Shown here one piece after another: positions 1,663 to 56,224 of a DNA stretch of 64,000 bases (position 1 is the first letter of the stretch; each line of letters begins with the position of its first letter). Made by a program: the position numbers and the translations under genes. The stretch comes from Mustelus asterias (lineage: Eukaryota). The notes beneath the pieces are model-generated. The model was not told the DNA's origin and made no database searches. It saw nothing but the letters and a program-made list of their open reading frames with translations. The DNA lies in NCBI RefSeq assembly GCF_964213995.1, contig NC_135815.1, positions 71,858,001 through 71,922,000 of the forward strand, written 5' to 3'.

Positions 1663-3462
1663 ACTCTCACCTTCTGTTATGTCCATCTATACATGGCTAT
1701 CTGCTGCTATGATGTGGAGATGCCGGCGTTGGACTGGGGTAAGCACAGTAAGAAGTCTCACAATACCAGGTCCAACAGGTTTATTTGGTAGCACAAGCTT
1801 TCAGAGTGCTGCTTCTTCTTCAGGTGAGTGAGGAGTTGTGTTCACAAACAGGGCATATATAGGCACAAACTCAATTTACAAGATAATGGTTGGAATGCGA
1901 GTCTTTACAGCTAATCAAGTCTTAAAGGTACAGACAATGTGAGTGGAGAGAGGGTTAAGCACAGGTTAAAGAGGTGTGTATTGTCTCCAGCCAGGACAGT
2001 TATTGAGATTTTGCAAGCCCAGGCAAGTCGTGGGGGTCATAGATAGTGTGACATGAATCCAAGATCCCAGGTTCATGTCACACTACCTGTAACCCCCAGA
2101 CTTGCCATCCTCATGTGTGCGGAACTTGGCTATCAGTTTCTGCTCAGCGATTCTGCGTTGTCGTGTGTTGTGAAGGCCGCCTTGGAGAACGCTTACCCGA
2201 AGATCAGAGGCTGAATGCTGAAGTGTTCCCCGACAGGAAGAGAACACTCCTGCCTGGTGATTGTCGAGCGGTGTTCATTCATCCATTGTCGTAGCGTCTG
2301 CATGGTCTCCCCAATATACCATGTTTCGGGACATCCTTTCCTGCAGCGTACAGATAGACAATGTTGGCCGAGTCGCAAGAGTATGTACCGTGTACCTGGT
2401 GGATGGTGTTCTCACGTGAGATGATGGCACCTGTGTCGATGATCCGGCATGTCTTGCAGAGGTTTCTGTGGCAGGGTTGTGTGGTGTCGTGGTCACTGTT
2501 CTCCTAAAGGCTGGATAGTTTGCTGCGAACAATGGTCTGTTTGACATTGTGCGGTTGTTTGAAGGCAAGAAGTGGGGGTATTGGAATGGCCTTGGCGAGC
2601 AGTTCGTCTTCATCGATGACATGTTGAAGGCTCCAGAGACGATGTTATAGCTTCTCCGCTCCGGGGAAGTACTGGACGACGAAAGGTACTCTATCTGCCG
2701 TGTTCCCTGTTTGTCTTCTGAGGAAGTCGGTGCGGTTTTTTGCTATGGCATGTCGAAACTGTCGATTGATGAGTCGAGTGCCATATCCTGTTCTTATGAG
2801 GGCGTCTTTCAGTGTCTGTAGGTGTCTGTTGCGATCCTCCTCATCTCATGTGAGAACACCATCCACCAGGTACACGGTACATACATTGTCTACCTGATAC
2901 GCTGCAGGAAAGGATGTCCCGAGGCATGGTACATTGGGGAGACCGTGCAGACGCTACGACAACGGATGAATGAACACCACTCGACAATCACCAGGCAGGA
3001 GTGTTCTCTTCCTGTCGGGGAACACTTCAGCAGTCACGGCCATTCAGCCTCTGATCTTCGGGTAAGCGTTCTCCAAGGCAGCCTTCACAACACACGACAG
3101 CGCAGAATCGCTGAGCAGAAACTGATAGCCAAGTTCTGCACACATGAGGACGGCCTCAACCGGGATCTTGGGTTCATGTCACACTATCTGTAACCCCCAC
3201 AACTTGCCTGAGCTTGCAAAATCTCACTAGCTGTCCTGGCTGGAGACAATCCACACCTCTTTAACCTGTGCTTAACCCTCTCACCACTCACATTGTCTGT
3301 ACCTTTAAGACTTGGTTACCTGTAAAGACTTGCATTCCAACCATTATCTTGTAAATTGAGTTTGTGTCTGTATATGCCCTGTTTGTGATCACAACTCTCA
3401 CTCACCTGAAAAAGGAGCGACACTTCGAAAGCTTGGAGAAGGTGGTGAAGAAGGCATATGGT

Positions 3463-5570
3463 ATAGAACATAGAACAGTACAGCACAGGACAGGCCCTTC
3501 GGCCCACGATGTTGTGCTGAGCTTTATCTGAAACCAAGATCAAGCTATCCCACTCCCTATCATCCTGGTGTGCTCCATGTGCCTATCCAATAACCGCTTA
3601 AATGTTCCTAAAGTGTCTGACTCCACTATCACTGCAGGCAGTCCATTCCACACCCCAACCACTCTCTGCGTAAAGAACCTACCTCTGATATCCTTCCTAT
3701 ATCTCCTACCATGAACCCTATAGTTATGCCCCCTTGTAATAGCTCCATCCACCCGAGGAAATAGTCTTTGAACGTTCACTCTATCTATCCCCTTCATCAT
3801 TTTATAAACCTCTATTAAGTCTCCCCTCAGCCTCCTCCACTCCAGATAGAACAGCCCTAGCTCCCTCAACCTTTCCTCATAAGACCTACCCTCCAAACCA
3901 GGCAGCATCCTGGTAAATCTCCTCTGCACTCTTTCCAGCGCTTCCACATCCTTCTTATAGTGAGGTGACCAGAACTGCACACAATATTCCAAATGTGGTC
4001 TCACCAAGGTCCTGTACAGTTGCAGCATAACCCCACGGCTCTTAAACTCCAACCCCCTGTTAATAAAAGCTAACACACTATAGGCCTTCTTCACAGCTCT
4101 ATCCACTTGAGTGGCAACCTTTAGAGATCTGTGGATATGGACCCCTAGATCTCTCTGTTCCTCCACAGTCTTCAGAACCCTACCTTTGACCCTGTAATCC
4201 GCATTTAAATTAGTCCTACCAAAATGAATCACCTCACATTTATCAGGGTTAAACTCCATTTGCCATTTTTCAGCCCAGCTTTGCATCCTATCTATGTCTC
4301 TTTGCAGCCTACAACAGCCCTCCACCTCATCCACTCCTCCACCAATCTTGGTGTCATCTGCAAATTTACTGATCCACCCTTCAGCCCCCTCCTCGTAAGT
4401 CATTAATAAAAATCACAAAGAGCAGGGGACCAAGCACTGATCCCTGTGGCACTCCGCTAGCAAACCTGCCTCCAGTCCAAAAATTTTCCATCCACCACCA
4501 CCCTCTGTCTTCGATCAGACAGCCAGTTACCTATCCAATCGGCCAACTTTCCCTCTATCCCACACCTCCTTACTTTCATCATAAGCCAACCATGGGGGAC
4601 CTTATCAAATGCCTTACTAAAATCCATGTATATGACATCAACTGCCCTACCTTCATCAACACACTTAGTTACCTCCTCAAAAAATTCAATCAAATTTGTG
4701 AGGCACGACTTGCCCTTCACGAATCCGTGCTGACTATCCCGGATTAATCCGCATCTTTCTAAATGGTCGTAAATCCCATCCCTAAGGACCTTTTCCATCA
4801 ATTTACCAACCACCGAAGTTAGACTAACCGGTCTATAATTACCAGGGTCATTTCTATTCCCTTTCTTAAACAGAGGAACAACATTCGCCATTCTCCAGTC
4901 CTCTGGCACCATCCCCGTGGACAGTGAGGACCCAAAGATCAAAGCCAAAGGCTCTGCAATCTCATCCCTTGCCTCCCAAAGAATCCTAGGATATATTTCA
5001 TCAGGCCCAGGGGACTTATCAACCTTCAGTTTATTCAAAACTGCCAGTACATCCTCCCTCCGAACATCTATTTCCTCCAGCCTTCTCTTCCTGAAAAACA
5101 TGGCCCCTCTCCTTGGTGAACACTGAAGAAAAGTATTCATTCATCACCTCGCCTATCTCTACTGACTCCATACACAAGTTCCCACTACTGTCCTTGACCG
5201 GCCCTAACCTCACCCTGGTCATTCTTTTATTCCTCACATAAGAGTAAAAAGCCTTGGGGTTTTCCTTGATCCGACCCGCCAAGGACTTCTCATGTCCCCT
5301 CCTAGCTCTCCTAAGCCCCTTTTTCAGCTCGTTCCTTGCTAACTTGTAACCCTCAATTGAGCCATCTGAACCTTGTTTCCTCATCCCTACATAAGCTTCC
5401 CTCTTCCTTTTCACAAGACATTCCACCTCTTTCGTGTACCATGGTTCCCTCACTCGGCCATTTCCTCCCTACCTGACAGGGACATACCTATCAAGGACAC
5501 CCAGTATTTGTTCCTTGAAAAAGTTCCACTTTTCATTAGTGTCTTTCCCTGACAGTTTCTGTTCCCATCT
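3463..5570 (-). mobile_element. CR1 LINE (family a), nested in another CR1
   Basis: ORFs 3540..4403, 4457..5140, 5031..5453 (KSPGPD, NYRPVSLTS, DFSKAFD, FADDTK); near-identical to 55170-57628. Confidence 0.92.
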
Positions 5571-9555: not shown

Positions 9556-9655
9556 ACCCATCAGGCCTGGAATTGGTGAAAAGCAAAAAACGTTTGAAGA
9601 TTTTGTTGAAGAACTACTTAAGGCAGATTCAGAATTATTTCATCAAGATCCCCAG
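9556..9655 (+). CDS. CENPJ: CENPJ-like exon (PN2-3 tubulin-binding-like segment), 100 bp, phase 2 to 0
   Basis: tttctcatag|A...CCCCAG|gtgaga; encodes (R)PIRPGIGEKQKTFEDFVEELLKADSELFHQDPQ. Not in the ORF track. Confidence 0.85.
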
Positions 9656-15400: not shown

Positions 15401-15800
15401 TCCCCCGTGATAATTGCCGTACCATTTTTACATGCATCAGTTATTTCTTTGTTTATTGCTCGCTCCACCATGATATTATTTGGTGGCCTATAGACTACGC
15501 CTGTCAGTGACTTTTTCTCCTTACTATTTCTAATTTCCACCCAAATGGATTCAACCCTATATCATCTCACACTACCGCCCTGATGTCATCCTTAAATATC
15601 AGAGCTACGTCACCTCCCTTATCTTCCTGTCTGTCCTTCTGAACAGTCTGATACCCCTGGATATTTAACTCCCAGTCATGACCACCCTGCAACCACGTCT
15701 CTAATGGCCACCAAATCATATTCATTCGCGATGATTTGCACCATCAACTCATTTACCTTGTTTCGAATGCTATGAGCATTTAGGTAAAGTGCCTTTATGC
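12484..15800 (-). mobile_element. CR1 LINE spanning endonuclease to RT and 3' tail, interrupted by a hAT element
   Basis: ORF 15247..15540 (GVVYRPPN, GDFN; APE-like endonuclease), 13396..13920, 12685..13311; tail cataagaacataagaa. Confidence 0.88.
14842..15278 (+). mobile_element. Non-autonomous hAT DNA transposon (437 bp) inserted in a CR1
   Basis: 15-bp TIR cagtgccggatttag / ctaaatccggcactg; 8-bp TSD (c/t)atgctcc. Internal MKRTFKSGYQKRKRK resembles a hAT transposase N-terminus. Confidence 0.85.
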
Positions 15801-16277
15801 TAGTTTTTATACCTTCTTTTTGAATCCTAACCCTGCATTAATAACATCTCCTGAGTTCTCCTTCCTTTTAACTTTTTTTCATAATTTTCCATGTAGTTGA
15901 AACCTCCTCCCCACATGCTAACCTGGTGCTTTGCTTCCCATCAACCATTATACTTCTCTCATAGTTTCCTGTATTTAGATTCAGGACACTTGTCTCAGAA
16001 TCAACTGCATCATTCTTCATCTTGATGAGGAATTCTATCATATTAAGTTATGGAAGCAAAGCAGCGAGTCAGGTCACCTTTGTGTGCACAGGGAGCGTCA
16101 GCAGCTGGAATGTCTGATCACTGACAAGCACTAATGACCCAGCTTTCATCTGGAGTATCCAGAATTCCCATTTAGCCTTGCCTTGCTATTTGTGGGCCAG
16201 AAAATGGCCACATTACCTTTAAGTCCTCCGTCAATGCATTTCCAAGATTGTTAATTTCTCCAAAGAGGCTTTGCCCG

Positions 16278-18275
16278 CATTACAATCACTTTAGAAGTGT
16301 TAGTGAGGGGTCTCTTTGGGACCAGTGACCATAATTCTATTGGTTTTAAGATAGCTATGGAGAATGATAGGTCTGGCCCAAAAGTTAAAATTCTAAATTG
16401 GGGCAAGGCCAATTTTGATGGTATCAGGCAGGAACTTTCAAAGGTTAATTGGAGGAGTCTGTGGGGTGGCAAAGGGACGTCTGGTATGTGGCACGCTTTC
16501 AAAAGTGTGTTTTCCAGGGTTCAGGGTAAACACATTCCTCTTAGAGTGAAGGGCAAGGCTGGCAGAAGTAAGGAACCCTGGATGACTCGGGATATTGAGG
16601 TCCTGGTCAAGAAGAAGAAGAAAGAGACACATGACATGCATAGGCAGCTGAGATCAAGTGTATCCCTTGAAGAATTTAGGGAGTGTAGGAGTAGAGTTAA
16701 GAGAGAAATCAGGAGGGAAAAAAGGGGTCCCGAGATTGTTCCTTGAAGACATTTTCTTTGTTCTTCTCAAATCGTGCAATACCTTCTCCTCGCTTCAGGA
16801 AAGACTTCTTTGGAACTGCCTTCACTTCATTTATTTAGGATCAACAAGGTCATATATGTGCAGATCCACAAGAGATGGGTGAGATCCTAAATGAATATTT
16901 CTCATCAGTATTTACTGTTGAGAAAAGCATGGATGTTAGGGAACTTGGAGAAATAAATAGTGATGTCTTGAGGAGTGTACGTATTACAAAGGAGGTGCTG
17001 GAAGTCTTAAAGTGCATCAAGATAGATAAATCCCTGGGACCTGATGAAGTGTATCCCAGGACATTGTGGGAGGCTAGGGCGGGTCCCCTAGCCAAGATAT
17101 TTGAATCATCGATTGTCACGGATGAGGTGCCTGAAGATTGGAGAGTGGCAAATGTTGTGCCTTTGTTTAAAAAAGGCTGCTGGGAAAAGCCTGGGAACTA
17201 CAGGCCAGTGAGCCTCACGTCTGTAGTGGGTAAATTATTGGAAGGTATTTTGAGAGAGGATCTACAGGCATTTAGAGATGCAAGTACTGATTAGGGACAG
17301 TCAACATGGCTTTGTGAATGGAAAATCATGTCTCACAAATCTGATTGATGACACTAAGATTGGTGGCATAGTGGACAGTGAAGAAAGTTATCTCCAATTG
17401 CAACGGGATCTTGATCAATTGGGCCAGTGGACTGACGAATGGCAGATGGAGTTTAATTTAGACAAATGTGAGGTGATGCATTTTGGTAGATTGAACCAAT
17501 AGATTTTTGGTAGATTTAACTTACTCGGTTAATGGTAGGGCATTGGGAAGAGTTTCAGAACAAAGAGATCTAGGGGTACATGTTCATAGCTCCTTGAAAG
17601 TGGAGTCACAGGTGGACAGAGTGGTGAAGAAGGCATTCAGCATGCTTGGTTTCATCGGTCAGAACATTGAATACAGGAGTTGGAATATCTTGTTGAAGTT
17701 GTACAAGACATTGGTAAGGCCACACTTGGAATACTGTGTGCAATTCTGGTCACTATTATAGAAAGGATATTATTAAGCTAGAAAGAATGCAGAAAAGATT
17801 TACTAGGATCCTACCGGGACTTGATGGATTGAGTTATAAGGAGAGGCTGGATAGACTGGGACTTTTTTCTTTGGAGCGTAGGAGGCTATGGGGTGATCTT
17901 ATAGAGGTCTATAAAATAATGAGGGGCACAGATCAGCTAGATAGTCAATATCTTTTCCCAAAGGTAGTGGAGTCTAAAACTAGAGGGCATAGGTTTAAGG
18001 TGAGAGGGGAGAGATACAAAAGTGTCCAGAGGGGCAATTTTTTCACACAGAGGGTGGTGACTGTCTGGAACGAGCTGCCAGAAGTAGTAGTAGAGGCGGG
18101 TACAATTTTGTCTTTTAAAAAGCATTTAGATAGTTACATGGGTAGGATGGGTATAGAGGGATATGGGCCAAATGCGGGCAATTGGGATTAGCTTAGGGGT
18201 TTTAAAAAAAAAAGGGCAGCACAGACAAGTTGGGCCGAAGGACCTGTTTCCATGCTGTAAACCTCTACGACTCTA
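16278..18275 (+). mobile_element. CR1 LINE with internal deletions and a host-exon-derived insert
   Basis: ORFs 16297..16746 (SDHN), 16875..17294, 17278..17502, 17507..17761, 17736..18191. Confidence 0.88.
16736..16834 (-). repeat. 99-bp perfect inverted copy of host exon sequence 19134-19232
   Basis: Base-by-base reverse complement is 99/99 identical; it sits inside a + strand CR1 in place of CR1 sequence. Confidence 0.95.
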
Positions 18276-19130
18276 GTGTTCCTGGCGAGTAGCTGACAAG
18301 TCCAAAACCAGGCGTCTGGTGGTCAAATCCAGTGTTAAAACAGTTCCTAATTGGCTTTTTAATTAATTATTTACCCAACAGATGAAAGGGGATTCCCCAG
18401 TCACCTTTATCTTGCCTGGTGAAACCTAGATCTCAACCCAGCATAGATTTCAAAATCCCTCCCACAATGAAACCATCTTCTCTTGGCTGCAAAAAGTCTG
18501 TCCAAAGAGGAGGACAGAAAGACTGGATCGTGAGAAAGAAAAAAATGTAAACATTTAAGATTAGTAATTTTTAAAATCTCTGAACAAAACCTTGCAATTG
18601 GCAAGAATGAGACTCAACAGTTTAATTGTTCTTCTGGGCCAGAGAGATTACATTAACAATTATAATGTTACTATTAATTATGACCACTGATTTTCTGTGA
18701 GTGTTTAATGGGCAATTTATATGTAAATCAAGTTATTTCTTAAAAAGAAAGGAGAGGCTGGAGGTGAAATATCATTTGTGGAACTGTTTAAAGTGGCTTG
18801 AAAGTTTTGGAAATTCTCAGATCAAGGTACATATCTTCAGCCCCTGACCTTTCTGGCTAATATGCACATCAATAGAAGTGTTCATCATGAACATGTTGGG
18901 TGGGTTTCTCCGGCCGTGCTTGCCCCACCCCCCCACCGGCTACAATGTCCGTGGCGGGTGGGACGAGAGCATTCCACCAGTTGTTATTTTCCAGAAAGAA
19001 AATACATTAATTTAAACAATTGCAAAGGATCATATTCTGGAAGAAGCATAACGCTCATCATATGTGTAATAGTTACTGCGAAGCATTTCGTAGAACTAAA
19101 TTCAAAAATAAATCTCTGATTGTTCTACAG

Positions 19131-20727
19131 GATATAAATGAAGTGAAGGCAGTTCCAAAGAAGTCTTTCCTGAAGCGAGGAGAAGGTATTGCACGATTTG
19201 AGAAGAACAAAGAAAATGTCTTCAAGGAACAAAACCGGAGTGCAGTCTGCGAATCGAGCAAACAGGTTCCCAGAAAAGTTAGTTTCAGCAGTCAACGTCG
19301 ACTTTCCCTACCCATGCTCAGCGAAAACGAAAAGTTTCAGATTAAGAAACAATCAACTTTGCAAAAGCAAGTTAATAGTTCAGTCCTTGTCGCATCCAAA
19401 GCAAAGAAGTCTGTCTCCAATGATAATGCCCTGACAAATAGCAAGATGAAAGATTACAGGCAAAAGGAAAAACTAGACGAAATCAAGAATAGTACCGACG
19501 AGGGTATCCAAAGTGACATAAACGTAGCAGAATTGGCAACCTTCTTTGAATCACCCCACAAATACTCTGATAACAGAAAAGGTGGAAGCCAACAAAAAGA
19601 GCAGGAATGTAAAGCAGGAGAAATAACTACTCTGGAGGAATCCCAAGTAAGAACTACTGGAAGTTTACATACTCTAGAAAGTCAGCACTTGATTGGAGTT
19701 GATTCACAATTAAAGAATTCAATTAGCAGTTTTTCTCATGGAAGTATGGAAGAGCAGCACCAAGGGCAACAAATAGGACAGAGTAAGACAAACCAACTGC
19801 AGGAATCTGCAAATGAGCAGCCACGTTTCAGTAACACTTCTCATCTGGAATACCTCAGCACTAACAGAACAATGACTCCAAACCAAACAGCTGGAATGCT
19901 CCAACAACAGGCAGAGAAAGAGCAAAATGACGATGCAGCCAATGCCAGAGGTTCCGGAAAATTGCTTGACAAAAAAAACCCAAGCATCGGCTTTAAAAAA
20001 ATAAATGACAGAATAGTTCAAGTTACTCCTGATGGTCTACCATGCCAGCGCGCAAATTTTAGAAATGAGCAAATCAGAGACAGTGCTGTAAGCATAGGGT
20101 TAGCAGCACATGGGAGCAATGAACATAGAACAGATTTTCTTTTACAAAATCACGGAACACATTGTGAATCAAATTCTAAAGTATATAGCACGGACAATGA
20201 GGGTGGTGGCCCAAAATCTCAGTGTCATCAACAACCCATAAAAGAAATTCTACAAAATTCTGGTCAGACTGATAAGAACTTGGACTTGTCTGATGATGCA
20301 GACTATGCGACTGATGCTCCAAGTGGAATGGAAGAAATGAGCACAGCAGCTCAAGCATCTCAGCATTCTGTACACTGTAGATCAATGGCGTCAACAGTGA
20401 AACATAATGAACTGAGCAGCACCAGCAGCAGTGAAAATGAACCCTTAGAGCTCAAGTCAAATACTTTATCAAGAAGATTTCCTTTCTCATGCAATAGGCC
20501 AATGAGAAATAAAAACAAAGTCATGAGAAGGAAGTCAAATTTTGCAAAGAAAAGCGCCAGTAGTTTTATGAGCACTCAAACCTGTGATACTACAGAATCA
20601 GATCTTGTCCAACCTTCTACCCCTAGTCTCACACCACAGTCTTCACAAGCACTTTACTCTCAACCAAAGGTGTCAATAAACTCTGATCTTCCAGAGCAGC
20701 TGAGCTCCAGCAGTGTAAATACTCAAG
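19131..20727 (+). CDS. CENPJ: CENPJ-like large central exon, 1597 bp, phase 0 to 1
   Basis: ttctacag|GATATA...ACTCAAG|gtatgt, inside ORF 19020..20744. Begins DINEVKAVPKKSFLKRGEGIARF, followed by S/Q/N-rich disordered sequence. Confidence 0.9.
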
Positions 20728-21291
20728 GTATGTATCTGAAATAAAATGAATCAAATCACAATTTCAAACATCACACTGAATTATTTGAACTGTGTTCCAA
20801 TGGCAAGGAACTGTAATTCATAACTTTGTTCATTTTAATGAGTCATAAATGTAAATAGGAAGTTTTAAAATAAAAGCAAAAAACAATGGATGTTGGAGAT
20901 CTGAAATATAAACAGTACTGGAAAAGCTCAGCAGGTCTGGCAGCATCTGTGGAGAGAGAAATGTTTGGGTCTAATATGACTCCTGTTTGGAATAGCATCC
21001 AAAGTTCCAAACAAGTTCAAAAGAAGACACATATTGGTCTCAAAACGACAATGCTGTTTCTCTCTCCACAGATCCTGCCAGAGCAGTTTTATGAACACTT
21101 TGTTTTTATTTTAGGAAGTTCCAATATTGGGGGAAAATTTCTGAGGAGGTGAGGATATGTCCTGATGTCCTGCTGTAACTTAGATGGAAGACTGGCAGAA
21201 ACCCTGAACAATTGATTCAAGTGACCCCATTTACACCATTTACCTGCATCATTGTACATTGGTGACTCATACAGCAGAGTCACACGTAAAC

Positions 21292-21375: not shown

Positions 21376-22547
21376 AGCCCATACTTGAGTAAACAGCTTG
21401 GAAAGTTAAAAGGAGAAAAATAACATGGCTTTATTGGTGCTCTATTCTTATCTCATTATTCATCTCCTGTAATGTTGCACACAGACAAAAATGAAAAGGG
21501 TATACTTATTATTAAATGCTTGTACCCTATTATAATAACTCTAGGAGTCGGCTGTAAAGGAACAGTGCTTTATTGCACAAAATAAAGTAAAGCAAAGCAA
21601 AAACCACAAGCCTGTGGTGAACACAACCGATCCTGACCGGGACAATACAACAATGGACTCACTCAGGGGGTCCACCTGGTTAGTTAATTACAAATCACCA
21701 AGGAGCTCGTACTCAATGGGCCCAACAGGGAGGTCAATCATTGATTCCCCATCCAAGTCATGGGGGTTCTCACACACATGCATTACACTGTCCAATTGCC
21801 AATAACTTACATATTGTGGGAAGAAAAATACCAAGCAAGCCTCTCCTAATTAAGCTAGCTCAGTGATAGTATCCTTGTCTCGAAGTCAGGTGGTTGTTTG
21901 TTCAAGCACTGCTCCAGAGACTTCACCACACAAGGGTAGAGTACCTGCTTTGGATGCAGTCATAATTTCAGTGCAAATTGTGCCAGTTTTGCAACCCAAG
22001 TGCATATCATCAATCTGCAATAAACCAGCATACTTGGGCAGTGTTGTAAAATCAATTTAAAAAGATTATTTTATGAAATATTCCTTGTAATATTAAAGGG
22101 TGTGTGCTACCTTGGTGAAGTTTGATTAATACAGCTGAAAATGGGTTCATCACCACAAATAGACATTTTAAAACTACTTAGTTTCCAACTATATTGTGGT
22201 AAATAACCAGTTCTTTATAAATTTAAATAAATAAAGCTCGGCACAACATCGTGGGCCGAAGGGCCTGTTCTGTGCTGTACTGTTCTATAATTTAAATGGT
22301 ATCTATCCATGCCCTTGCATTCAAAAGTTCCAGTTTAATTATTGGATTATTCTTGAAGGTCTGCAAATGATTACAATTAGTCAAAATTCCCAATGATGAT
22401 TGATTTACCCTGGGGGGAATGGTCCCTTTAAAATGTAGCTGCTGTGCAAGGCCAGGTTTTTAAATGTGTGAGAGTTGAATCTTCACACAGATTAGTTTTC
22501 CCCAGGTAGAGCTAAATTTCTCACTCAGCCTTTGACATTCCTGCATC

Positions 22548-22872: not shown

Positions 22873-22978
22873 TCACTGCTAAACTTTTCTTGGTGTGGAG
22901 ATGCCGGTGTTGGACTGGGGTAAGCACAGCAAGTAGTCTCACAACACCAGGTTAAAGTCCAGCAGGTTTATTTGGGAG

Positions 22979-23013
22979 CACGAGCTTTCGGAGTGTCACT
23001 CCTTCTTCAGGTG
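22979..23013 (-). ncRNA. Minimal type I hammerhead ribozyme motif
   Basis: cac-CUGAAGA-a-ggagu gac acucc-GAAA-gc-UC-gug; stem I cac/gug, intact stem II. Confidence 0.7.
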
Positions 23014-23030
23014 AGTGTCACTCCTTCTCT

Positions 23031-23065
23031 CACCTGAAGAAGGAGTGACACCCCGAAAGCTTGTG
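23031..23065 (+). ncRNA. Minimal type I hammerhead ribozyme motif (one stem II mismatch)
   Basis: cac-CUGAAGA-aggagugacacccc-GAAA-gc-UU-gug. Confidence 0.6.
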
Positions 23066-24499
23066 CTACCAAATAAATCTGTTGGACTTTAACCTGGTGT
23101 TATGAGACTACTTACTAAACTTTACTTGGTCCAGGGCTCGTGATTTTTCCACTTTATTGTATCTACCCTTATGAGCTTGGGTTCTAGGGACTGGGCAATC
23201 GAGCAACAGACTAGGAAGTTCCTCCTGCAAAATATCTAGCGGGAGGGAGGGTGGATCTTGAGCCCTTACTCACCATCCGTGAGAGTGGCAGCGGGGGCTC
23301 AAGATCCGGCGAAACCAAGAAGTTGCGAATCTTGACGGCGAGATCGTAACTTCTGATTTTCACCGCCACTCAACGTAATCAGGTTCATGCCCACAATGGG
23401 CGTGGACCTGATTTAAATACATCTCCATTTTTAGCATATTATTAAAGGCTCCCCTCACGTACATTGATCCCAAGGTGTATTTCAAACATTGGCACGGTTT
23501 CCCAATTGGTTCACCCAAACGTGAACCTGTCGTGGGGATACCCCCAGGGGCATAAAGGTGAGTATAGTGCTCAAGAGAGAGGGGCTGGCAATGCCCCCTG
23601 GCACAGGTTAGCACTGCAAGGTTGGCACTGGGTGGTCGGGGACAGGGCTGGGCAGTGCCAAAGGGGCAAGGCTTGCCCCTCCCCAGCCCCTTTTTACTGG
23701 TGTGAACCGCTTCACTTCTACTCAATCAATTCTCTTTGAAGTAAACCTCTCAATCCTTTGGGAAACCGGGAAGGCTTATGCTTATTAGCATTAATTTGAA
23801 TGGATTTCAATACCATTCGCGAGTTTGACACACTATCGGCCCCCCTCCCGAATGTTTCCCACTTCTCCGGCAAGATGTCATGCTGGCGGGAAACACTATA
23901 AAAGTGTGGGTCAGGCACAGCAATAGTGAAGGGGAGCGAGATGGTGAGTACCACTGAGAACCAACCCCCGGAGTGCGTTGGGGGGGGGGGCAGTCTCAGC
24001 TGCTGCCATGTGCAGGGTGGGGTAGGGGGCTTGCATGGGTACAGGGCTTTGGGAAGGCTCATGCCAGTATGGGGCTCCTCAGGTCAGGGGTCACTGCTGG
24101 CATGTGGCTCGTGTTGTATGCATTCACCTGGCCTCTGAATGACCCCCGAGGGGTAGCTTATTGGGTCGACTCCTAACCCCACTGGTGTCACTGTGGTTAC
24201 CCTGTCATCTGTCTGCTGAACAGGCTCTCTGCCTGACCTCTGACATCCCATCCCAGGCCCTACTAACAGAAACAAGCAGCAGCTCTGTCAGCTGCTGTTC
24301 CAACCAAGGGAGCTCGGCAGGTGTTAACGCGGCTCCTCACACTGCATGGACTCTGCAGTGCTGCCCGTGGGAACCCATCTCGTGCTAGTCATGAGGGTTT
24401 TCTCCACTGTCTTTCTGAACTGCAAGCCATTCCTGAAAGCCACTGCACCAGACATCCTGGTGGGTGCACCCATGCCTATGCTTCAAGCATTACCAAGAG

Positions 24500-25812: not shown

Positions 25813-25942
25813 AAGATGCTCAATCTCGACAATTCCAAGACAAACTTCTACAACTGGAAACAGAAATTGAACGTTTCAAAGCAGAAAATACATCATTAGC
25901 CAAACTGAAGGAGAAACAAGAGTTGGCGATGGAAAATCTCAG
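25813..25942 (+). CDS. CENPJ: CENPJ-like coiled-coil exon, 130 bp, phase 1 to 2
   Basis: cgcag|AAGAT...CTCAG|gtacat; (E)DAQSRQFQDKLLQLETEIERFKAENTSLAKLKEKQELAMENL(R). Confidence 0.9.
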
Positions 25943-33136: not shown

Positions 33137-33440
33137 AGTAAGAGTTTTAACAACACCAGGTTAAAGTCCAACAGGTTTATTTGGTAGCAAATGCCATTAG
33201 CTTTCGGAGCGCTGCTCCTTCGTCAGATGGAGTGGAAATCTGCTCTCAAACAGGGCACAGAGACACAAAATCAAGTTACAGAATACTGATTAGAATGCGA
33301 ATCCCTACAGCCAACCAGATCTTAAAACCAACCAGATCCGAAAGCTAATGGTATTTGCTACCAAATAAACCTGTTGGACTTTAACCTGGTGTTGTTAAAA
33401 CTCTTACTGTGTTCACCCCAGTCCAACGCTGGCATCTCCA
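33137..33440. mobile_element. Penelope-derived mini-element (family B) with inverted ends
   Basis: Inverted arms agtaagagttttaacaacaccagg...; 13-bp flanking duplication cttc(t/c)gatatctt at 33124-33136 and 33441-33453. Confidence 0.78.
33194..33230 (-). ncRNA. Minimal type I hammerhead ribozyme motif
   Basis: ccau-CUGACGA-a-ggagc agc gcucc-GAAA-gc-UA-augg; canonical core, stem I ccau/augg. Confidence 0.75.
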
Positions 33441-37372: not shown

Positions 37373-37704
37373 TCATAGAAATCATAGAAACCCTACAGTG
37401 CAGAAGGAGGCCATTCGGCCCATCGAGTCTGCACCGACCACAATCCCACCCAGGCCCTACCCCCACATATTTACCCGCTAATCTACGCATCTCAGGACTC
37501 TAAGGGGCAATTTTTCACCTGGCCAATAAACCTAACCCGCACATCTTTGGATTGTGGGAGGAAACCGGAGCACCCGGAGAAAACCCACGCAGACACGAGG
37601 AGAATATGCAAACTCCACACAGACAGTGACCCGAGCCGGGAATCGAACCCGGGACCCTGGAGCTGTGAAGCAGCAGTGCTAACCACTGTGCTACCGTGCC
37701 GCCC
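37373..37704 (-). mobile_element. HE1-type V-SINE
   Basis: Close reverse complement of 61872-62204. Confidence 0.85.
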
Positions 37705-50900: not shown

Positions 50901-51910
50901 GCTTCAAAGCGAAATCTACTGACTGGACTTAGCAATTCAGCGCTTCTTGCTTGAAGTGTGATGTGGGGCCTCTCTTTAAAGCAGGAAGCAATCCTTTCAT
51001 GTAAATGCTCCCTTTCCCCAGCCTGGCAGATCAGCTGCTTGTTCCAATGCTGAATCAGTTGGCAAGATTTCAAAGGTCGAGCACTTCTTCTTTAAAGCTT
51101 CAGTGGGGGTCTTGGACTAGAAACAAGAGCTAACAGAGCTGTGGGAAGCAGCTGGGTGCCTGCACGTCTGCCACTGACACAAGCCCTGTACTTATCAACA
51201 ATTATGATCACTTACAAGAAAAGTAGGTCCTTTTACCCAAAAGTAAGATACTGCAGATACTGGAAATCTAAAATTAAAAATATGCTTGAAGTACCCATCA
51301 AGTAAGGAAAAAGAAATAGAGGTAACGATTTAGGTTAGTGAGCTTACATCAAAACTGAGAAGGCGAGAAAACAAGAACTCTTCCCTCTTTCAAGATGGAG
51401 CAGGATAGCAGGGTAAGTTAAGTACTCCATGAGGTACTAAGATTATTGGATGCGGAACTAAGGCCTTTCTCTTGTACTGTAGGAGACAATGGACAGTAAG
51501 AAGTCTCACAACACCAGGTTAAAGTCCAACAGGTTTATTTGATAGCAAATTTGGTAGCAAAAAGGAGACAAAGGAGACAGTGCTCTGACTTTATTGTCTT
51601 TTAAGTTTAGAAGTGAGGGGATCTGATTTTATTATGCACTCTTTCCTTTTCACTCACCCCATCCCAGATGATCCAGCAGCATTCAGGAAATGTAAAGGAG
51701 AAGTTAGCTCTTTCCATTCAATGGTGCAACATACTATTGAGCATAGGGTTTGAATTGTATATCTATATCTGTCAAACTCACTTAGATACGCAGCTGTCCA
51801 AACATCAAATATTTGATATATACATGGAAACTATGCTGAAAGGTGTAAATGTCTTCTCTAATTACAATATAAGATGTTAATCACCTCCTCTAATTGTTTT
51901 AGGTGTTCAG

Positions 51911-55086: not shown

Positions 55087-56224
55087 ATATTGTTCTAAAC
55101 ACTGTAGTATAAACTGAATGGAAGGCACAACTTGCTAATTCAGCATTTAAATCATTCTGTGTTAGATTGACATAGAACATAGAACAGTACAGCACAGAAC
55201 AGGCCCTTCGGCCCACGATGTTGTGCCGAGCTTTATCTGAAACCAAGATCAAGCTATCCCACTCCCTATCATCCTGGTGTGCTCCATGTGCCTATCCAAT
55301 AACCGCTTAAATGTTCCTAAAGTGTCTGACTCCATTATCACTGCAGGCAGTCCATTCCACACCCCAACCACACTCTGCGTAAAGAACCTACCTCTGATAT
55401 CCTTCCTATATCTCCCACCATGAACCCTATAGTTATGCCCCCTTGTAATAGCTCCATCCACCCGAGGAAATAGTCTTTGAACGTTCACTCTATCCCCTTC
55501 ATCATTTTATAAACCTCTATTAAGTCTCCCCTCAGCCTCCTCCACTCCAGAGAGAACAGCCCTAGCTCCCTCAACCTTTCCTCATAAGACCTACCCTCCA
55601 AACTAGGCAGCATCCTGGTAAATCTCCTCTGCACTCTTTCCAGCGCTTCCACATCCTTCTTATAGTGAGGTGACCAGAACTGCACACAATATTCCAAATG
55701 TGGTCTCACCAAGGTCCTGTACAGTTGCAGCATAACCCCACGGCTCTTAAACTCCAACCCCCTGTTAATAAAAGCTAACACACTGTAGGCCTTCTTCACA
55801 GCTCTATCCACTTGAGTGGCAACCTTTAGAGATCTGTGGATATGGACCCCTAGATCTCTCTGTTCCTCCACAGTCTTCAGAACCCTACCTTTGACCCTGT
55901 AATCCACATTTAAATTAGTCCTACCAAAATGAATCACCTCACATTTATCAGGGTTAAACTCCATCTGCCATTTTTCAGCCCAGCTTTGCATCCTATCTAT
56001 GTCTCTTTGCAGCCTACAACAGCCCTCCACCTCATCCACTACTCCACCAATCTTGGTGTCATCAGCAAATTTACTGATCCACCCTTCAGCCCCCTCCTCT
56101 AAGTCATTAATAAAAATCACAAAGAGCAGGGGACCAAGCACTGATCCCTGTGGCACTCCGCTAGCAACCTGCCTCCAGTCTGAAAATTTTCCATCCACCA
56201 CCACACTCTGTCTTCGATCAGACA

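Follow-up and report, generated by a model that had tools for sequence, protein, structure and literature searches.

The CENPJ locus and the inverted copy of its large exon

The window analysed here, a stretch of 64,000 nucleotides from Mustelus asterias, contains exons of CENPJ, the gene for CPAP, and a LINE copy in the intron ahead of the large exon (Table 1). This exon had been described as a 1597-bp exon of phase 0 to 1, and the reading frame bears this out, as it continues from the exon into both neighbouring exons (608 codons, no stops). PF25779 (E 6.9e-6) is the only Pfam match of the large exon in 532 aa, and PDB 5itz_D was matched with E 1.5e-4. F375 of human CPAP has been reported as important (PMC4912634). 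Our alignment suggests that the donor codons include a Phe that lines up with the core by which human CPAP binds tubulin, the exact residue being a reading of the alignment.

Table 1. Coordinates of the features at the CENPJ locus (positions in the window)
Feature	Positions	Strand	Remarks
Preceding CENPJ exon, encoding the N-terminal half of the tubulin-binding motif	9556..9655	+	PF25779 E 1.4e-10
LINE copy, dead, internally deleted, hosting the patch, sense to the gene	16293..18275	+	CR1 in the preliminary description; sister copies ~85-94% identical; LINE-1 ORF2 resemblance
Left junction, 5-nt microhomology TTGTT common to LINE and inverted donor end	16736..16740	+	sister copies align up to 16740, then continue as LINE
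Inverted copy of the exon start, 99 nt including microhomology, ~93 nt new	16736..16834	-	99/99; second and last genome match
Two acceptor-like sites (AG ending at 16798 and at 16838) with a weak donor-like site of the LINE at 16879	16775..16884	+	crude pyrimidine count
Right junction	16834..16838	+	1 nt microhomology if the ancestor read TTTA (3/20 copies), else ~2 untemplated nt
Donor within the large CENPJ exon (codons 2-34), encoding the C-terminal half of the tubulin-binding (PN2-3) motif of CPAP	19134..19232	+	Pfam PF25779, PDB 5itz_D
CENPJ/CPAP large exon, 1597 nt, phase 0 to 1	19131..20727	+	
Downstream CENPJ exon, coiled-coil-like sequence	25813..25942	+	frame continues from the large exon and is lost if that exon is skipped

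The preliminary description reported a perfect 99-bp antisense copy of the exon start, lying 2.3 kb upstream of it, and in the assembly sequence the copy is the exact reverse complement of its donor at every base. The match extends at neither end. The start of the donor 3 nt past the exon acceptor and the peptide that it encodes were likewise as described. The two arms, with 2299 nt between them, form one of 115 inverted pairs in the window. When 19100-19400 was compared with the 3.68-Gb genome, two matches were obtained, the CENPJ exon and the inverted copy. A dispersed repeat or paralogue as the source of the copy is ruled out by these two matches, and chance similarity is ruled out by the identity of 99/99 bases within unique sequence. 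The inverted patch is probably real. Other near-perfect short matches occur in the window at 22231-22288, 33137-33208, 37373-37464 and 51493-51550; these four look like repeat pieces, and in two of them the match continues into shared flanks.

Junctions of the patch and its possible origin

The flank of the patch belongs to a high-copy element with 2236 first-look candidates. The LINE frame resembles LINE-1 ORF2 (E 1.8e-4), which is a general LINE ORF2 likeness and not a clade-level assignment; against Pfam it gave no match. Both flanks are present in 20 sister copies; two anchors are separated by 91 nt in 19 of these and by 92 nt in the remaining one, against 99 nt in the window. Split alignments to the sister copies showed that 85 nt of LINE are missing at the patch; in comparison with these copies, ~93 new nt came in and 85 nt of LINE went out. 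The view that all 99 nt are foreign has thus to be narrowed, as the first 5 nt are native to the LINE and the last base may be so too. The probability of at least 5 nt of microhomology arising by chance at one junction is 0.005, and with 0-1 nt at the right junction the microhomology is convincing at the left junction only. The copy has no poly(A) and its flanks have no target-site duplication, both as described before. A processed retrocopy or LINE transduction is ruled out by these two absences and by the 85-nt loss.

Template switching or break repair had been proposed earlier as the source of a recent templated insertion, and this origin is supported by the microhomology, the 85-nt loss and a lineage-specific base discussed below. 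In our view the patch is fairly likely to be a young scar of a microhomology-primed template switch, and the inverted repeat left behind is probably near neutral. The event would have begun at a DNA end within the dead LINE that annealed, through 5 nt, to the CENPJ exon lying 2.3 kb downstream, on its sense strand. The annealed end would then have copied ~93 nt of the exon backwards before it rejoined the LINE 85 nt beyond the point it had left; an inverted repeat would result, with the switch points in the order 1-4-3-2 of the four-point notation. What we infer here is that priming took place at the left end, that the route was replicative (FoSTeS/MMBIR-like) or one of synthesis-dependent repair, that the template was DNA and that the scar is neutral. 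In 1.0 Mb no low-copy inverted pair at 98% or more was seen, which speaks against dense perfect events; this survey used a repeat library of ~1.2 Mb and 10-kb pieces, so that 'low-copy' is loose and pairs crossing piece edges are missed. Templates a few kb from deletion breakpoints were reportedly described by Abyzov and colleagues in 2015. Such a distance is absent from the accessible text of PMC9069542 and PMC4937565.

Several known classes of rearrangement resemble the CENPJ patch. The 'Inverted Dup' class makes up 54% of sequenced human inversion calls in the 1000 Genomes structural variant map, nearly all of them below 1 kb and at most 5 kb from the other copy (Sudmant et al. 2015, PMC4617611). 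The CENPJ patch is likewise below 1 kb (99 nt), inverted, within 5 kb (2299 nt) and devoid of retrotransposition marks, but its donor is coding sequence of the host gene and it is known from one assembly. The four-point template switch 1-4-3-2 (Loytynoja and Goldman 2017, PMC5453318) shares with it the leaving, the reverse-complement copying, the downstream return with loss and the resulting inverted repeat. This order fits with leaving at 16740, return near 16834 and 19134-19232 as template, the ancestral state being taken from sister copies and not from an orthologue; the model was, however, made for short-range clusters and the jump here is 2.3 kb. Around 100 MMB-TI calls of at least 25 bp, in several classes, were reported per human germline (Osia et al. 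2021, PMC8421209). These share the inverted templated insertion, the replacement and the junction microhomology, but in their search definition the template lies within 100 bp, whereas the CENPJ template is single and 2.3 kb away. Templated insertions by pol-theta are 3-30 bp long and copied from within ~50 bp of the break (PMC7165422), unlike the ~93 nt brought here from 2.3 kb. A second local patch within the same LINE copy, at 17499-17518, does fit that class.

Age of the copy and alternatives for its origin

Donor position 19153 reads T in the window and in run X1, from the same species, and C in three related-species runs; the inverted copy holds the complement of this T. As it carries a base that is found only in this lineage, the copy is young, and the comparison with the donors of the three relatives indicates that it postdates the split from them or was rewritten afterwards. 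X1 shows one difference from the window in 2652 nt, and one contig, 18249-20900, passes unbroken through the donor. According to the Logan paper, a second exact copy should break the 31-mer graph at the donor unless simplification has pruned the copy. The unbroken contig is therefore a weak hint that X1 is without the copy. At position 20556 the window differs from X1 and from the three relatives, which may mean that X1 represents another haplotype or that the assembly contains errors. Among the X1 contigs listed there is no long perfect piece inside the LINE copy, so that private paths were probably pruned and the X1 test is weak. When four runs were examined over 15600-20900, LINE-derived contigs swamped 16300-18300 and none of the pieces listed covered either junction, which is no proof of absence. 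In the run search two runs of one sample contained 0.80-0.83 of the query words (24 runs listed), and none of the 24 runs listed is recorded as RNA.

It could be argued that the patch is an artefact of the assembly or the library, or else a variant which only the assembled haplotype carries and which has no standing in the species. The continuous X1 contig, the complete identity of the arms and the difference at 20556 would all be in line with this. Assemblers use overlaps longer than 5 and 0-1 nt, so a leave-and-return join on such short stretches is hard to explain in this way. The window contains no N (400 N in the 1.0 Mb sampled), and the X1 comparison weighs little for the reason given. 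We regard an artefact or private variant as unlikely, though of some weight. A patch templated by RNA, in which a broken end was extended in cis by reverse transcription, primed on a nascent or spliced transcript of the same gene, appears very improbable. The donor is exonic, and the 5-nt microhomology indicates the sense strand, that is the RNA sequence, as template. Class 2 TSIPs (Onozawa and Aplan 2016, PMC5110952) also show microdeletion, microhomology and a similar size with no poly(A) and no target-site duplication. However, the donors of TSIPs are distant and the CENPJ donor is local, in the same intron-exon unit; the copy ends 3 nt before the exon start is reached, and the bases that follow agree with neither the intron nor the upstream exon. 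A spliced-mRNA template was set aside because the copy crosses no splice junction. An exonic donor needs no special cause, because 16% of the DNA within 5 kb is this CENPJ exon.

RNA pairing, splice sites and what the patch could mean

It was proposed earlier that the copy could form a 99-bp duplex in the pre-mRNA beside the 3' splice site. The predicted duplex of the two arms has -180.9 kcal/mol, the single arms fold weakly (-13.4 and -17.6) and the minimum-energy fold of 16601-19400 keeps 99/99 pairs, so that pairing between copy and exon is possible on this prediction. In the same predicted fold the acceptor AG and the bases just before it lie outside the long helix. It should be noted here that minimum-energy folding over 2.8 kb ignores co-transcriptional protein binding. 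A perfect helix would be edited by ADAR without selectivity. The proposed ADAR recoding is weakened by the perfect helix and by the 2.3-kb spacing: editing of Alu pairs at 2400 bp averages ~20-fold below that at 100 bp, with a fitted editability above baseline of 0.16% against 2.6%, these pairs being imperfect and having competitors (PMC4066801). Conservation as in ADAR-type elements was not found either, as the base in the copy is absent from the donors of the three relatives. Editing-complementary sequences of recoded exons, such as that of the GRIA2 Q/R site, are imperfect, conserved and site-selective. The CENPJ patch is like them in being an intron segment complementary to an exon, and unlike them in its perfect match, its youth and its place in a dead LINE. 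Of the proposed functions, endo-siRNA is the least probable, since splicing removes the intron arm within the nucleus.

A real effect on RNA would mean pairing of the intron arm with the initial 100 nt of the exon, leading to unselective editing of the tubulin-binding motif or to partly masked exon signals with skipping and decay, and so to a mild hypomorphic CENPJ allele. We consider this quite improbable. In its favour are the stable predicted helix, the covered codons with the aligned Phe and the fact that 29 of the 41 donor adenosines would change a residue if read as G. A mouse Tbxt CRISPR target site gained a 220-bp reverse copy from ~1 kb away, and the splicing of Tbxt was altered in mice by this perfect intronic pair (Xia et al. 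2024, PMC10901737). Mouse Tbxt insRCS2 and the TBXT AluY-AluSx1 pair resemble the CENPJ patch, with a nearby segment reversed into an intron and a perfect pre-mRNA pair. Their geometry is different, however, as the Tbxt arms both lie in introns on either side of the exon, with measured skipping, whereas one arm of the CENPJ pair is the exon itself and any skipping is hypothetical. The spacing of 2299 nt with the low Alu values, the position of the acceptor AG, the youth of the element with no sign of conservation and the neglect of protein binding in the fold also stand against it.

The patch has in addition created two acceptor-like sites from the antisense copy that were absent from the preliminary description. 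In a crude count each has 14/17 pyrimidines with YAG/G, against 11/17 at the true acceptor. Of the 575 AGs in the intron, 10 score at least 14 and have a clean YAG, and among these a G follows in the two new sites only. Together with 16879 they are predicted to give frameshifting poison exons of 80 or 40 nt, both products stopping early. That these sites act, and not the pairing, is hardly to be expected: the donor-like site matches 6/9 consensus positions against 8/9 at the true donors, a more stringent donor threshold is passed by 10 further acceptor-donor pairs of this intron, and the score is crude. Skipping of the large exon would shift the frame with a stop after 28 codons, and therefore strong skipping is probably selected against. 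The patch of the favoured template-switch reading is probably near-neutral. On the near-neutrality bear, for it, this frameshift and the low Alu editing at similar spacing and, against it, the very stable predicted helix, the altered splicing with the 220-bp Tbxt pair and the origin of the Alu value from imperfect pairs with competitors.

As a mutation the patch is ordinary, since its size, spacing and junctions match classes known in human genomes. What is special is the place of the donor, the one recognised domain of an exon without in-frame skipping, in a gene needed for centriole building. Among the literature matches listed, in which subscription papers are mostly outside coverage, there was no case of a one-step origin of exon-intron duplexes and none of CENPJ with splicing or editing of such kind. 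On the present sequence evidence the patch marks a past repair event and could at most be put forward as a mild allele. It is improbable that a single mutation has given a coding exon a perfect antisense partner in its intron and so produced a newborn editing-complementary or splice-damping element over the CPAP tubulin-binding motif, possibly still segregating. If that were true, the comparison of carrier and non-carrier alleles would reveal how such RNA switches begin, and if carriers had editing or skipping the locus would offer a natural and datable test of the one-step origin of exon-intron duplexes.

Inverted copy of the CENPJ exon start

The reverse complement of the donor, at the start of the large CENPJ exon, is identical to the patch at 99 of 99 positions in the window sequence, and the match extends beyond these 99 nt on neither side. 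The arms are 2299 nt apart and the window contains no N bases. The perfect 99-bp antisense copy of the exon start claimed in the preliminary description therefore stands in the assembly, as do its donor start 3 nt past the acceptor and the lack of poly(A) or a target-site duplication at the patch. Searched with 19100-19400, the genome (3.68 Gb, 5313 contigs) contains two matches, one the exon and the other the patch, which makes the donor single-copy.

Judging from its coding sequence, the host gene is CENPJ/CPAP. The only Pfam match of the large exon is the CPAP tubulin-binding region (residues 4-25, E 6.9e-6), and human Centromere protein J chains align to the exon start (5itz_D, E 1.5e-4). 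Exon limits were read from the sequence and not from RNA. The three exons joined give 608 codons with 0 stops. The large exon had been described as frame-shifting, and in the computed joining its omission does shift the frame, with a stop 28 codons into the next exon. At 20556 in this exon the window has G, whereas X1 (a run nearly identical to the window, same species) and three relatives have A; this is a private allele or an assembly error.

Features of the window (window coordinates)
Feature	Position	Description
Upstream CENPJ exon	9556-9655	first half of CPAP tubulin-binding domain, E 1.4e-10
Large CENPJ exon	19131-20727	1597 nt; open over 532 codons
Next CENPJ exon	25813-25942	
Donor	19134-19232	
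Patch	16736-16834	inverted copy of donor
Dead LINE copy receiving the patch	about 16293-18275	sense to gene; frame resembles LINE-1 ORF2, E 1.8e-4
Internal deletion in LINE copy	17347-17348	several hundred nt
Second patch in LINE copy	17499-17518	20 nt in place of 7 nt
Acceptor-like sites	AG at 16798 and 16838	14/17 pyrimidines each, against 11 at true acceptor
Weak donor-like site	16879	80- or 40-nt candidate poison exons with the acceptor-like sites
Direct repeat	3463-4521 and 55172-56224	1059 nt, 98% identity; probably a mobile element in two young copies
Nested inverted arms (pairs I6, I15, I21)	1833-2350 and 2898-3397	94-96%; fold-back, about 500 nt per arm
Inverted arms	33137-33208 and 33337-33408	71/72 match
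Inverted arms	22911-23133	86% identity, 13-nt gap

Junctions and age of the patch

Both flanks of the patch site are present in 20 of 29 sister LINE loci. The anchor-to-anchor length is 91 nt in 19 of these 20 and 92 in the other, against 99 in the window. Split alignments with sister copies stop at 16740 and restart at 16834. It was thus confirmed that the copy replaces element sequence, with 85 nt of LINE lost and about 93 new nt gained. At the left junction LINE and donor share the initial 5 nt of the patch, a microhomology with a chance of 0.005 per junction. At the right junction an ancestral TTTA, as in 3/20 sister copies, would give 1 nt of microhomology, and the commoner TTAA about 2 untemplated nt.

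The same LINE copy carries other changes. The second patch, found in 0/23 of the sister copies listed, contains a 12-nt direct copy of 17481-17492, 24 nt upstream, and fits a Pol-theta-type local templated insertion. Small indels lie near 17079, 17251 and 17752. Left of the patch, 16600-16740 has 10 private changes in 141 nt, where the rate elsewhere is about 2.7 per 100 nt (Poisson 0.006, for a region chosen post hoc); error-prone synthesis near the junction could account for this excess. Another LINE copy (L007, G000:C1:127230674-127234104) has an in-place 27-nt inversion; it is identical at 25/27 positions to a segment of another copy read in reverse complement, and it starts 2 nt from the equivalent of the left junction. 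It is no evidence for a hotspot, because the locus was picked by a patch-containing query.

Contigs of four runs, X1 and the related species X3, X7 and X9, were aligned on 15600-20900. Between X1 and the window there is 1 difference in 2652 nt, and the longest pieces of the relatives differ at 48/1966 (X3), 140/about 2620 (X7) and 121/about 2120 (X9). Donor position 19153 is T in the window and X1 but C in all three relatives, a lineage-specific change giving Val instead of Ala just before the tubulin-binding motif. Since 16815 in the copy carries the complement of this derived T, the copy is younger than the change or has been rewritten since; the recency claimed earlier is thus upheld, with later rewriting as the alternative. 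Contigs of X1 and X9 start within the last 30 nt of the LINE, a weak hint that the LINE was in place before the patch.

Local duplications across the genome

The survey of local pairs (40-500 nt, at least 85% identity) covered 100 stretches, each 10 kb long, of which 20 lie next to the window and 80 come from 21 contigs; one window piece served as control. Among 191 local pairs 15 were low-copy, namely the control and 14 others, of which 6 are inverted (86-96%) and 8 direct. Besides the control, none of the low-copy inverted pairs in these stretches reached 98%, and 0/14 interrupt a repeat as the control does. When the first 40 stretches were scanned for exact matches, one low-copy inverted 61-mer appeared, its arms 181 nt apart. 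Within 1 Mb no second perfect event of the patch's shape was thus seen, a frequency still compatible with many in the whole 3680 Mb. The large exon occupies 16% of the sequence lying up to 5 kb from the patch site, so a donor in an exon is nothing unusual. That the donor ends 3 nt from the acceptor is less expected, but this was spotted post hoc. Three low-copy direct duplications of 174, 190 and 60 nt (L093:5408-7251, L122:871-3309 and L127:2193-6619; 97-98% identity, 1.5-4.3 kb apart, one arm each adjoining a repeat) are possible direct-orientation counterparts.

Origin and possible effects

X1 yields one 2695-nt contig (depth 21.9) running unbroken over 18249-20900 through the donor, as would be expected if the copy were an artefact or a variant private to the assembled haplotype. 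Logan contigs are described as containing each 31-mer a single time; they derive from a simplified graph, and those of 150 bp or less are left out (bioRxiv 10.1101/2024.07.30.605881). A second exact copy would be expected to interrupt this contig within the donor, except where pruning removed the branches at the junctions. These branches lead into a repeat of enormous depth, and pruning is plausible because no long perfect X1 piece from inside this LINE copy is among the contigs listed. The contig tilts slightly toward X1 lacking the copy and is compatible with artefact, polymorphism or pruning alike. Assemblers join on overlaps longer than 5 nt, and the junction overlaps of 5 and 0-1 nt are too short for this; we regard an artefact or private variant as rather unlikely.

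It had also been proposed that the pre-mRNA could form a 99-bp duplex beside the 3' splice site. This holds in the predicted minimum-energy fold of 16601-19400, which keeps 99/99 pairs (-180.9 kcal/mol for the two arms), with the acceptor AG outside the long helix. That the duplex would measurably affect the RNA is unlikely. Perfect intronic pairs altered Tbxt splicing and tail length, but there the arms flank an exon, whereas the CENPJ arm is the exon start itself (PMC10901737). In the fit of PMC4066801, Alu editability falls off with distance on a scale of about 800 bp, pairs 2400 bp apart being about 20 times less editable than those at 100 bp (0.16% against 2.6%, computed from the fit), which argues against an effect at comparable spacing, but Alu pairs are imperfect. 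If read as G, 29/41 donor adenosines would change a residue. Also against an effect, a perfect RNA helix would be edited unselectively, and skipping of the large exon would shift the reading frame of a gene whose loss has severe consequences in mammals. The antisense copy of this purine-rich exon creates the two acceptor-like sites, a new observation here. A poison pseudo-exon using them is extremely unlikely; with a stricter donor cut-off, 10 other acceptor-donor pairs in this intron still qualify.

The preliminary description had suggested a recent templated insertion by break repair or template switching. Microhomology, the 85-nt loss and the switch-point order agree with this, and the route itself is a proposed one. 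From its sequence the patch anatomy is a leave-and-return template switch of order 1-4-3-2, matching the four-point description in PMC5453318. A + strand 3' end within the LINE may have paired over 5 nt with the exon sense strand, been extended about 93 nt along it and rejoined the LINE 85 nt downstream. Possible templates are the RNA and the single-stranded DNA of a fork, a resected end or an R-loop. The sequence is compatible with DNA or RNA, because the copy ends 3 nt short of the exon start and the bases beyond match neither intron nor upstream exon; an RNA template is very unlikely. Pol-theta insertions, 3-30 bp long with a template no more than 50 bp away (PMC7165422), and MMBIR-type templated insertions as searched (template within 100 bp; PMC8421209) are more local than the 99-nt patch with its 2299-nt spacing. 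In size and spacing it resembles inverted duplications below 1 kb within 5 kb, which make up 54% of sequenced human inversion calls and are their most frequent class (PMC4617611). In mouse Tbxt, a CRISPR target acquired a reversed 220-bp copy of sequence about 1 kb away (PMC10901737). The patch is probably a real, near-neutral, DNA-templated scar, and its origin is an already known kind of templated inverted duplication.
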